From a virus, in IMG/VR virus record IMGVR_UViG_3300034520_000200, positions 1 through 64,000 of that record: a stretch of 64,000 nucleotides of DNA. The stretch is one strand, 5' to 3'. A program made the translations under genes and the position numbers. Below are positions 13,233 through 18,960 of the stretch, in pieces (position 1 is the stretch's first letter; each line of letters begins with the position of its first letter). Below the pieces are notes generated by a model. The model saw only the letters and a list, made by a program, of their open reading frames with translations. It ran no database searches and had not been told where the DNA came from.

Positions 13233-13298
13233 TATTGAATCCTCCTTTTATTTTATTTTCAAGGTTCAATAAATCGAATAATACAAAAATGGAGGGGT

Positions 13299-13706
13299 TT
13301 AGATTACCCCTCTTACTAATAGCCTCTTTTTTTCTTGTTCTTTAAAATTCTCCAAAGAAGCTTTTACTATATCTTTTATATGGTCTGCTGTTTGAGTTTC
13401 ATATTTATATCTTACTGTTCCCAAATGTTCATTGTAAGCTTCTTGTCTTGTGTAATATTTCATCCCTGGAAGTTTTGCCAATTCTTCTGGAAGTTCAGTA
13501 TTAATTTCAAGGACAATTTCGCCTGCAGAATAGACCAATTTAAGAAGACGTACATTCCCCTTAAAGTAAGAATATCCCGTCGTTATTGGTCTTTCTACAA
13601 AACCTTTGTTTTTGAGGACCATTGACCGAATAACTTTTAAAGACTTATCAAATTCATTGACAAACTCCTTTTCTTCAGGCTGTTTCTTAATCTTTTTAAC
13701 GGGCAT
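13299..13706 (-). CDS. H(L/M)GT-family paralog 2
   Basis: RLLKLV..VLEIN..EAYNEHLGT. Confidence 0.75.
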   Translation of the reverse strand: MPVKKIKKQPEEKEFVNEFDKSLKVIRSMVLKNKGFVERPITTGYSYFKGNVRLLKLVYSAGEIVLEINTELPEELAKLPGMKYYTRQEAYNEHLGTVRYKYETQTADHIKDIVKASLENFKEQEKKRLLVRGVI

Positions 13707-13867: not shown

Positions 13868-14263
13868 TTAATCTGAAGAATCAACAGAAAATGTCAATCC
13901 ACATTTCTTACAAGTATAAGTATGTATGAATCTTTCATGACTTTCTTCAGTATATTCATGTTTACATCCAATTTTAAAGACTTTTATTTCATCATTTCCC
14001 ATATCTACTACAGCGTAAGCTACATCAAAAAAGAAAAATATCCACGTATTATAGATTCTACTGCAAGGGTCTTTAGTATTAATATATACTTGTCTAAAAT
14101 CAATATATTTTGGTGAGAATGAAAAAATCTTTCTCCAAAAATTTTTGATATTACTTTCTTCAAAGGGTTCTGGTAATTCATTGTAGTTGTTGAATTTTTC
14201 AATATACTTAAACTCGTCTTTAAATTTACTACGATCGTCTGCAATTGAATTTACTTTATACAT
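13868..14263 (-). CDS. hypothetical protein with C-terminal Zn ribbon
   Basis: GCKH...CKKCG; likely start is the ATG after GGAGGTG. Confidence 0.7.
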   Translation of the reverse strand: MYKVNSIADDRSKFKDEFKYIEKFNNYNELPEPFEESNIKNFWRKIFSFSPKYIDFRQVYINTKDPCSRIYNTWIFFFFDVAYAVVDMGNDEIKVFKIGCKHEYTEESHERFIHTYTCKKCGLTFSVDSSD

Positions 14264-14324
14264 ATCATCACCTCCTTCCAAGATGAATTTTAGAAACTAT
14301 AAAAGTGGCTGCTCCTAAAAACAA

Positions 14325-14963
14325 TTATTGATTAACTTCTACTGTCTGTATATTTTCTGTTTGATTTTCTTCTTTACGATCTTCTACTTTCACAGGTAAC
14401 GTTTCTACAGGAGCTTGGGCTGCAATTTCAATTTTGCCCTTCTTCTTTTTATATTCATTAAGCCGATCTAAATCTTCTTGAGTCATCTTTCTTGTTACAA
14501 CTTCTGAAGCAGCAACTGAAGCTTTTTTATTCTTCTTATTGAGTTTGGATTTTCCAGACTTTTGGATAGTCTTAGAAGTTGAAGCTTCTTTCTTTTCTTC
14601 ACCCTTCCGATTTACCATATCTTGGAAATTCTTCCAAGCCTCATGAAGAGCTTCTTTTACTTCTGCTTCGTCATTGCTCTTCAGAATGTGGACTAAAGTT
14701 CCAAGGTGTTTCTTAGACGCTTCTACTTTCGAGAATGTTTGAAGATTTGGACCAAGTTTTTTAATCGTTGTATCAGATAATTTCACGTTCAATTCTAAAT
14801 ATACTCCTTCTTTTCCTGTCTTAACTAATTTGCAAAACCTATCACTTCCGCTGAAGAAACTATTCCCTGTGGTATTTTCTTTCATTGAAAGTCTGTCTTT
14901 CACTAAATTCTTGATTTCCTTCAAAGTCTTATCAAACCCAAACTTTTCTTTATTTTCTGCCAT
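14325..14963 (-). CDS. H(L/M)GT-family paralog 3 with charged C-terminal tail
   Basis: RFCKLVK..YLELNV..EASKKHLGT; close paralog of 21097-21570. Confidence 0.8.
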   Translation of the reverse strand: MAENKEKFGFDKTLKEIKNLVKDRLSMKENTTGNSFFSGSDRFCKLVKTGKEGVYLELNVKLSDTTIKKLGPNLQTFSKVEASKKHLGTLVHILKSNDEAEVKEALHEAWKNFQDMVNRKGEEKKEASTSKTIQKSGKSKLNKKNKKASVAASEVVTRKMTQEDLDRLNEYKKKKGKIEIAAQAPVETLPVKVEDRKEENQTENIQTVEVNQ

Positions 14964-15125
14964 TTTGGCTCCTCCTTTTTAAATTCAAATTTCTTTTCGG
15001 AGCAGCCACTTAAATTCTTTATTAAATTTTCAAGGTCCATTTTATTTTCAAATATATTATAAAATAAAGTTATCTGAAAGTAAATATATTCTACTGACTT
15101 TTTCAAACTTTTTTTTAAACTTATT

Positions 15126-18823: not shown

Positions 18824-18960
18824 TTCCTCCTTCTATTATTTTTTCAAGGTCCATTTTATAATTTAATTTTATCATAAAGTTTGCATGAAGTAAATAAATA
18901 TGTTTCTTTTTGAATTAGTTTTGGGCTCTACCAGTGAAAAGCGGATGAAGAGGAGTATTT

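Follow-up and report, generated by a model that had tools for sequence, protein, structure and literature searches.

Complementary arms around an early phage gene carry an anti-Shine-Dalgarno word and are predicted to form a long-range 5'/3' RNA helix

Why should a phage gene be bracketed by two segments that are complementary to each other, one in its leader and one past its stop codon? The question is raised by an inverted repeat with arms at 14303-14315 and 14999-15011, enclosing an open reading frame (ORF) at 14325-14963, in the first 64 kb of IMGVR_UViG_3300034520_000200, the 86,065-bp record of an uncultured soil phage; these 64,000 nucleotides (nt) were analysed as a whole and are referred to as the window. 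The record has a G+C content of 28% and an estimated completeness of 54%. To our knowledge, few bacterial or phage mRNAs are known with 5' and 3' ends paired around a whole coding region. The arms described here very probably form such a long-range helix in RNA, if the three readings that place their function at the RNA level are taken together, and the pairing probably controls the timing of message translation or cutting. The new observation is that the 5' arm carries an anti-Shine-Dalgarno word, both in this gene and in two related genes with comparable stems; pairing of the RNA in vivo, an order of folding and any nuclease step are what we infer.

The sequence-only reading had described a perfect 13-bp inverted repeat, and this holds in its details. 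As written in the window, AAGTGGCTGCTCC at 14303-14315 and GGAGCAGCCACTT at 14999-15011 are exact reverse complements, the former arm ends 9 nt from the stop codon (14325-14327), and the extension by four A-U pairs past one mismatch is recovered as a G.A mismatch followed by 4 A-U pairs and 1 G.U pair. Further inward, an A.G mismatch is followed by 2 A-U pairs, and the helix ends 1 nt from the stop codon. Read on the minus strand, which carries the gene, the 5' arm consists of the core AAGTGGCTGCTCC (14999-15011), an inner extension (14990-14998) and possibly 6 outer bp (15012-15017), and the 3' arm of the core GGAGCAGCCACTT (14303-14315), an inner extension (14316-14324) that begins 1 nt past the stop codon, and possibly 6 outer bp (14285-14290). 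The duplex energy amounts to -30.4 kcal/mol with the extensions and to -24.8 kcal/mol for the 13-bp core alone.

Pairs of this strength are rare in the genome. Among 677 perfect inverted repeats of at least 10 bp with arms 150-2000 nt apart, counted over the whole genome, the top two are the one considered here (14303/14999, -24.8 kcal/mol) and one around a paralog (21075-21087/21599-21611, -24.9 kcal/mol), and the next reaches -16.9 kcal/mol; in a scan over distances of 100-2000 nt, these two are the only ones among the repeats listed that carry 8 G/C. In 100 dinucleotide-preserving shuffles, which were scanned for perfect repeats of at least 11 bp, there was one case at -24 kcal/mol or below (best -24.2) and none at -24.8, the mean count at -20 kcal/mol or below being 0.16 per shuffle. 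The arm pair also ranks first among 71 inverted pairs between 13500 and 16000 (41 nt, 78% complementary). When the 5' and 3' flanks of 76 genes, as put out by a caller based on ribosome-binding sites, were paired with each other, the two stem genes gave the strongest duplexes (-44.2 and -31.0 kcal/mol; third -26.6, median -13.8). A null of mismatched flank pairs reached a minimum of -53.2, which is tentatively attributed to neighbouring genes with one common intergenic hairpin. The repeat is real and non-random.

The enclosed ORF (p14325) is a member of a six-copy paralog family in this genome, and its stem has a counterpart around the paralog at 21097-21570 (p21097). This sister unit (21058-21628, minus strand) contains a helix of 30 positions with 27 Watson-Crick pairs, 1 G.U and 2 C.A (-44.2 kcal/mol). 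The earlier claim of a match in geometry to the 21058/21599 pair, with differing arm sequences, is borne out: both stems bracket paralogs at corresponding positions, and their arm letters are unrelated. The promoter type and the leader as far as a boxA-like word are conserved between the two loci, which align well over this part and over the coding region; the arms do not align. A search for flanking complementary arms in homologous genes, which had been suggested as a check, was answered by a homologue from another metagenome (L001; 32-35% amino acid identity, approximately 45% G+C, promoter TTTACT-17-TACAAT at ~541-569). Its top inverted repeat out of 25 is 29 nt long, 86% complementary and composed of other letters, with one arm ending 5 nt upstream of its Shine-Dalgarno (SD) sequence, the other lying 70 nt beyond the stop codon, and a duplex energy of -52.2 kcal/mol. 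A third stem with letters of its own agrees with the proposal that pairing rather than sequence is conserved, which favours an RNA structure. As an observation in its own right, in the outer 7 bp of the L001 helix (748-754 / 1597-1603) CCTCCTT stands opposite AAGGGGG, which serves as SD for the following gene, and the stem there would therefore mask the ribosome site of the downstream cistron.

The distribution of stems within the protein family points in the same direction. In 200 shuffles of the 3' flank, the observed energy was reached in 0/200 for each of the three stems. None of the 13 other family members with readable DNA has a stem: eleven are unremarkable (15-173/200) and two are borderline (1/200), and the latter, L006 and L012, were rejected as stems, their duplexes being long AT-rich or terminator pairings. 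The homologous DNA read comprises L001 and nine distant members in two related IMG/VR phages (G001 and G002); a flank scan of 126 genes in G001 and 125 in G002 yielded no comparable stem (best z -3.9 and -3.1, z-scores referring to the six lowest energies per genome). In a quick maximum-likelihood protein tree (55 rows), one clade of 15 rows unites the three stem genes with a support of 97 in the Shimodaira-Hasegawa-like approximate likelihood ratio test (SH-aLRT), apart from all 13 stemless members; the flanking DNA of this clade was read for the three stem genes, and its other 12 members are represented by proteins. Because of this separation, the stem looks ancestral to the clade and retained while its arm sequences were fully replaced. 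Compensatory change is seen in the form of natural turnover only, as three clade members with three unrelated arm pairs.

What the three arm pairs have in common is an anti-SD word in the 5' arm of each stem gene. At p14325, GTGGCTGCTCCG can pair with the SD region AGGAGGAGCCAA (14965-14976, minus strand, GGAGG at 14971-14975) with one mismatch, and at p21097 the word TCCTCCT, which is included in the sister 5' arm, can pair with AGGAGGA. If 75 genes are ranked by the duplex between leader (-90 to -21) and SD region (-20 to +3), p14325 comes first (-17.7 kcal/mol) and p21097 second (-14.4 kcal/mol). The word CTCC occurs in 3 of 47 intergenic leaders, two of which are the stem 5' arms, and within the 15 family members considered it is found in the leaders of 3/3 stem genes and 0/12 others. 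The 3' arm in turn contains AGGAGCAGCCA, a 10/11 copy of the SD region; its use as the SD of a small ORF was considered and rejected, there being no start codon at SD distance behind the arm. The locus is composed of three elements, an SD, an anti-SD arm and an SD-like 3' arm, and we infer from folding models that they may behave as a switch. In minimum free energy (MFE) folds of the untranslated region (UTR) alone, the SD is masked in all three stem genes and becomes free on adding the 3' region, and in the full-length ensemble of p14325 the SD is unpaired at 0.20 without and at 0.94 with the 3' arm. Anti-SD-like words have been described to repress mRNAs of B. subtilis even at a distance and to be depleted from genes (PMC12697547).

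Several lines of evidence place the pairing in RNA. In full-length folds the core helix is part of the MFE structure, with arm-to-arm pairing probabilities of 0.98 (p14325), 0.99 and 0.92 for the three stems; in 3/3 cases a single predicted transcript includes both arms, each in an untranslated part; and the RNA level is favoured because an anti-SD word in the 5' arms is meaningful only in RNA. As judged from the minus strand of the window, transcription of the unit would start near 15049, behind a promoter-like site (TTTACT, 17 nt, TATAAT; 15056-15084, 10/12 matches), and proceed through a boxA-like leader word (GGACCTTGAAAAT, 15026-15038, with six intergenic copies), the 5' arm, which is placed between this word and the GGAGG of the SD, the ORF of 212 amino acids (14325-14963), 9 further nt and the 3' arm into the next cistron of 131 amino acids (13868-14263). 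From the promoter (15084-15056) to the 3' arm, no terminator-like site was found on the minus strand, and none was found between the ORF and the next cistron. Since the SD of the next cistron lies ~30 nt beyond the 3' arm, the transcript would be a longer one, of which the stem loops out the first cistron. The paired hbs mRNA discussed below is likewise characterized by complementary segments that lie ahead of the SD and past the stop codon on one transcript. The sequence-only reading had staked itself on homologues with flanking complementarity and on a common transcript for both arms; a homologue of the same clade, L001, has the complementarity, and no terminator-like site separates promoter and 3' arm. 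On the same strand, the region of 12-25 kb carries small early genes, which are preceded by repeated TTTACT-17-TATAAT promoters and by strong ribosome sites with AAGGAGG.

Over all rivals we favour, tentatively and at somewhat less than an even chance, a switch between SD, anti-SD and 3' arm that is combined with a duplex of RNase III (ribonuclease III) size. The paired arms would close the 0.68-kb cistron into a loop within one early transcript, and the 5' arm would have two possible partners: its own SD ~22 nt downstream, with which it would form a local SD-masking hairpin, or the SD-like 3' arm, with which it would form a stronger duplex of 13 perfect pairs, or ~20 with the extensions. The 3' arm would thereby compete with the SD for the 5' arm. 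The nascent leader would mask the SD; once transcribed, the 3' arm would capture the 5' arm and free the SD, such that only completed messages are translated; and loss of the 3' arm to decay would mask the SD again. The long helix, with about 19-21 positions at p14325 and 29-30 in p21097 and L001, may also be a processing or stability site, because its length is within the RNase III size range in Firmicutes. RNase III of B. subtilis is described to cut duplexes that measure 10-36 bp and whose strands are separated by up to 505 nt (PMC11780869).

A number of findings weigh against this proposal and are best considered together. Modelled over full-length ensembles, the SD switch lacks robustness: it is clear for p14325 only, weak for L001, in which the unpaired fraction of the SD rises from 0.11 without to 0.27 with the 3' arm, and absent for p21097, in which it falls from 0.87 to 0.78. 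A partition function of the UTR alone ranks the SD of p14325 only 11th of 75 (0.20). There are only three stem instances, and these share ancestry, so that 3/3 does not amount to three independent trials. The count of G.U versus C.A on the sense strand (5 vs 3) gives no strand direction. The stretch occurs in four DNA runs of one soil/subsurface study and in no RNA run, and the four runs show one single-nucleotide polymorphism (14642 C>A) and arms without variation. Finally, that the host has RNases of the Firmicutes type is presumed from the kind of promoter, the SD and a low G+C content.

Comparison with known systems shows which parts of the arrangement have precedents. In the hbs mRNA of B. 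subtilis, a proven 14-nt pairing of -19 kcal/mol connects the 5' UTR with a segment just before the terminator and restricts cleavage by RNase Y, RNase III being reported as without effect (Braun, Durand, Condon 2017, PMC5737220). The phage unit resembles it in having a perfect complement of 13-14 nt, with strands placed in the leader ahead of a strong SD and past the stop, a cistron that would be looped and Firmicutes-type signals. In contrast to hbs, in which the pairing overlaps an RNase Y site and RNase III makes no difference to it, the predicted phage helix spans ~20 positions (30 in the sister unit), its 5' arm is an anti-SD, and its 3' arm is located between cistrons instead of ahead of a terminator. 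In the icaR mRNA of S. aureus, an anti-SD in the 3' UTR (UCCCCUG) masks the SD, forming a duplex on which RNase III acts (Ruiz de los Mozos et al. 2013, PMC3868564). Common to both is that the message's own 3' region would be involved in SD/anti-SD pairing, whereas the polarity is reversed: the anti-SD of the phage resides in the leader, and the SD-like 3' arm AGGAGCAGCCA is predicted to pair with the leader and not with the SD, and to unmask the latter. Type I toxin mRNAs such as H. pylori aapA3 and hok are described to pass through metastable SD-sequestering hairpins, which are replaced by a 5'-3' helix that keeps the message inert until 3' trimming (Masachis et al. 2019, PMC6733600). A local SD-masking hairpin preceding a stabler 5'-3' helix, which forms once the 3' end is made, is also predicted for the phage. 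Unlike those mRNAs, which encode small toxic peptides, have an antisense RNA and end in a helix that keeps them inert, the phage ORF encodes a soluble protein of 212 amino acids, and its final helix is predicted to free the SD. No antisense partner of the phage unit was seen, with no search aimed at antisense RNA. The order of promoter, boxA-like word, 5' strand, product and 3' strand, together with a helix of RNase III size, recalls the leader-trailer helices of rrn operons (PMC8632103, PMC13753749), but the phage loop holds a protein-coding cistron with its own SD, and the boxA-like word is one U short and also precedes stemless genes. Duplexes of strands hundreds of nt apart in one mRNA are likewise found among the long-range RNase III sites of B. 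subtilis (Taggart et al. 2025, PMC11780869); the strands of those are at most 505 nt apart as described, compared to 683 nt in the phage. The phage unit is predicted to have its geometry in common with hbs and rrn, its folding order with aapA3 and its SD/anti-SD theme with icaR, with reversed polarity.

Two rival explanations accept the RNA helix and deny the switch. The stem may be a pure processing stalk laid out as in pre-rRNA, its anti-SD content being incidental, which we regard as rather unlikely. The boxA-like leader would then recruit the host NusB/S10 complex and retain the 5' arm on the polymerase pending emergence of the 3' arm, and a cut by host RNase III would produce a monocistronic mRNA with paired ends, separated from the leader and the next cistron. 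This reading accounts for the order of promoter, boxA-like word, 5' arm, product and 3' arm in 3/3 cases, for helices of 19-30 positions inside the RNase III range and for a stem that would loop out the first cistron of a longer transcript. It can also draw on the resemblance of the boxA-like word to the consensus AUGAUCUUUGAAA given for B. subtilis (PMC13753749), with GTTCTTTGAAAAC in L001, and on the delivery model described for the helix of 16S leader and trailer, whose leader strand is passed on to the trailer strand by factors bound at boxA (PMC8632103). However, GGACCUUGAAAAU is one U shorter than that published consensus, and the word is not tied to the stem: of its occurrences as ACCTTGA(A/T)AA in early leaders of the minus strand (13255-13265, 15026-15036, 18840-18850, 19590-19600, 21650-21660 and 24536-24546), four precede early genes without an enclosing stem. 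Moreover, the first and second ranks out of 75 for the pairing of 5' arm and SD are left unexplained, the enclosed product is a 212-amino acid ORF with a strong SD and not a stable RNA (there was no Rfam match at gathering score, and the three matches at E ≤1 are far below it), and a host enzyme would be needed, as the record, estimated to be 54% complete, yielded no RNase III gene of the phage. Less likely still is a nuclease shield of the hbs type, in which the 5'/3' pairing would cover an entry site for RNase Y or J1 in the leader and block 3' exonucleases, giving an abundant early mRNA a longer life without a cut or a translational switch. In geometry and size the stem agrees with the hbs interaction, which is proven by experiment, and the strong SD and Firmicutes-like signals suit such a host; yet p21097 and L001 have helices (29-30 positions) that are far longer than needed and expected to be RNase III substrates, the 3' arm lies between cistrons and not beside a terminator in 2/3 cases, and the anti-SD feature has no use.

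The remaining two explanations do without a functional RNA helix. A segment whose inversion cuts the gene off from its promoter (an inverton), or inverted sites bound by the enclosed, presumably DNA-binding protein, with each paralog recognizing its own sites in an autoregulatory loop or roadblock, would fit inverted repeats that flank the gene with the promoter outside, as well as the lack of strand preference in the G.U versus C.A count; the enclosed protein is weakly similar to the DNA-binding MotA C-terminal domain and to YjbR folds, and paralog-specific sites are conceivable. We consider such a DNA-level function very unlikely. The record (86 kb, estimated 54% complete) yielded no match to a resolvase or tyrosine recombinase (PF00239, PF00589), the contigs of the four runs, which as contigs drop rare forms, show no strand-change joint at the arms, and the arms have no further copy in the genome at up to 1 mismatch, all of which weakens the inverton and operator readings. 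In addition, the L001 repeat is imperfect (4/29 non-Watson-Crick), unlike sites homogenized by recombination, repeats of 29-30 positions are long for the binding site of a monomer, and the anti-SD link and the fixed placement in UTRs are regularities of the RNA level. A mobile cassette with terminal inverted repeats was rejected as well, as the paralogs share no arms, the promoter is outside, and there is no transposase. Chance, or a functionless relic such as an ancient hairpin split by gene insertion, appears the least probable explanation of all. The sequence TTTTAT after the 3' arm, with four T, is reminiscent of a terminator tail, and AT-rich genomes give many weak inverted repeats, as seen from the 677 counted here; but shuffles almost never yield one such repeat, still less two, both stems bracket paralogs at matching positions, a third case occurs in the distant genome of L001, and neither p21097, which has a separate terminator of its own, nor L001 shows a T-run. 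With a T-run in 1/3 cases only, a terminator split by gene insertion was rejected, as was an intrinsic terminator, whose loop would measure 683 nt and whose T-run would follow the 3' arm at p14325 only.

The switch that we favour may be taken one step further, in a form that we consider unlikely as a whole. The stem would then be a gate for completion and integrity of the message in translation, with a design that turns those of icaR and the type I toxins around. The anti-SD leader arm would silence the SD during transcription of the gene, and the SD-mimicking 3' arm, 1 nt past the stop, would capture the anti-SD and turn the finished message on. Each terminating ribosome, or decay from the 3' end, would reopen the helix and let the anti-SD mask the SD again; output would be metered in this way, and truncated messages would never be translated. 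The boxA-like leader may keep the 5' arm on the polymerase for its hand-over to the 3' arm, and the design would have been retained in a clade of phage regulators while all arm letters were replaced.

The enclosed protein of 212 amino acids consists of an N-terminal domain of ~120 amino acids and a Lys-rich tail with a TRKMTQEDLDRL motif, and matches no entry of Pfam or PHROG. An AlphaFold2 model (predicted local distance difference test score, pLDDT, 83.8) shows a weak fold likeness to YjbR, DUF419 and T4 MotA (C-terminal domain), with VIA Z values of 7.7 (2fki), 7.6 (2a1v) and 6.7 (5jlt), all <8 and below the level that excludes coincidence; Foldseek gave E-values of 0.05 or weaker and none ≤0.001. 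The protein may be a DNA-binding regulator of the early phase, for which dose would be of importance. In searches for relatives there was no match among GenBank phages by DNA or by protein, the terminase has GenBank phage relatives only at ~31% identity, and no relatives came from IMG/VR searches with the protein, alignment A1, the clade member P0005, the L001 protein, a neighbouring early gene or alignment A6, nor from GTDB genome contigs searched with alignments A1 and A6. Alignment A3 led to the two related records G001 and G002 in IMG/VR, which hold distant family members only, and a profile search of 1.84 billion representatives gave 94 proteins at E ≤0.001 for the family of the enclosed protein.

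Some further observations concern the arms, the leaders and the family. The 10-mer AAGTGGCTGC, the first 10 nt of the p14325 5' arm, has one further copy at 21143-21152 on the same (minus) strand, inside the paralog ORF 21097-21570, which could pair in trans with the 3' arm of p14325 or be a coincidence. Three leaders have TTTGAAAATAAAA in common directly after the -10 box. The terminator hairpin of the paralog at 13299-13706 (13292-13312, minus strand) overlaps the stop codon of this gene and contains CCCCTC, a complement of sequences of the SD type. The strongest long-range inverted repeats of the related phages enclose non-coding DNA dense in GAGCTC-type heptamers, namely 670 nt between arms of 17 bp in G002 (L025; 101593-101609 / 102280-102296), with the right arm sitting within a promoter spacer, and 368 nt between arms of 15 bp in G001 (L018; 81475-81489 / 81858-81872). 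The 3' UTR of a distant family member in G002 (L007, ~1905-2010) contains, before a terminator, a 14-bp stem (GGGCTGTGTTATC / GATAACACAGCCC) around ~75 nt with two inner hairpins, possibly a structured 3' element. One family branch, which is conserved in all three phages (G000 78787-79713, beyond the window; L003; L012), carries an N-terminal zinc-ribbon fusion (CxxC...CxxC) and a long acidic linker.

In the proven cases of end-paired messages (hbs, icaR and type I toxins), pairing is described either to shield a cleavage site or to mask an SD (PMC5737220, PMC3868564, PMC6733600). The phage genes provide a natural case with three unrelated arm pairs inside a single protein clade, and from their anatomy one would predict the reverse logic, with a 3' end that unmasks the SD. 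The unit is also a small test system of ~0.8 kb with clear predictions for mutants and compensatory mutants, and the device, if it operates as proposed, could be copied for synthetic gene control. For the phages themselves, it would mean that they tie translation to the completion or integrity of the message through a simple, portable RNA device.

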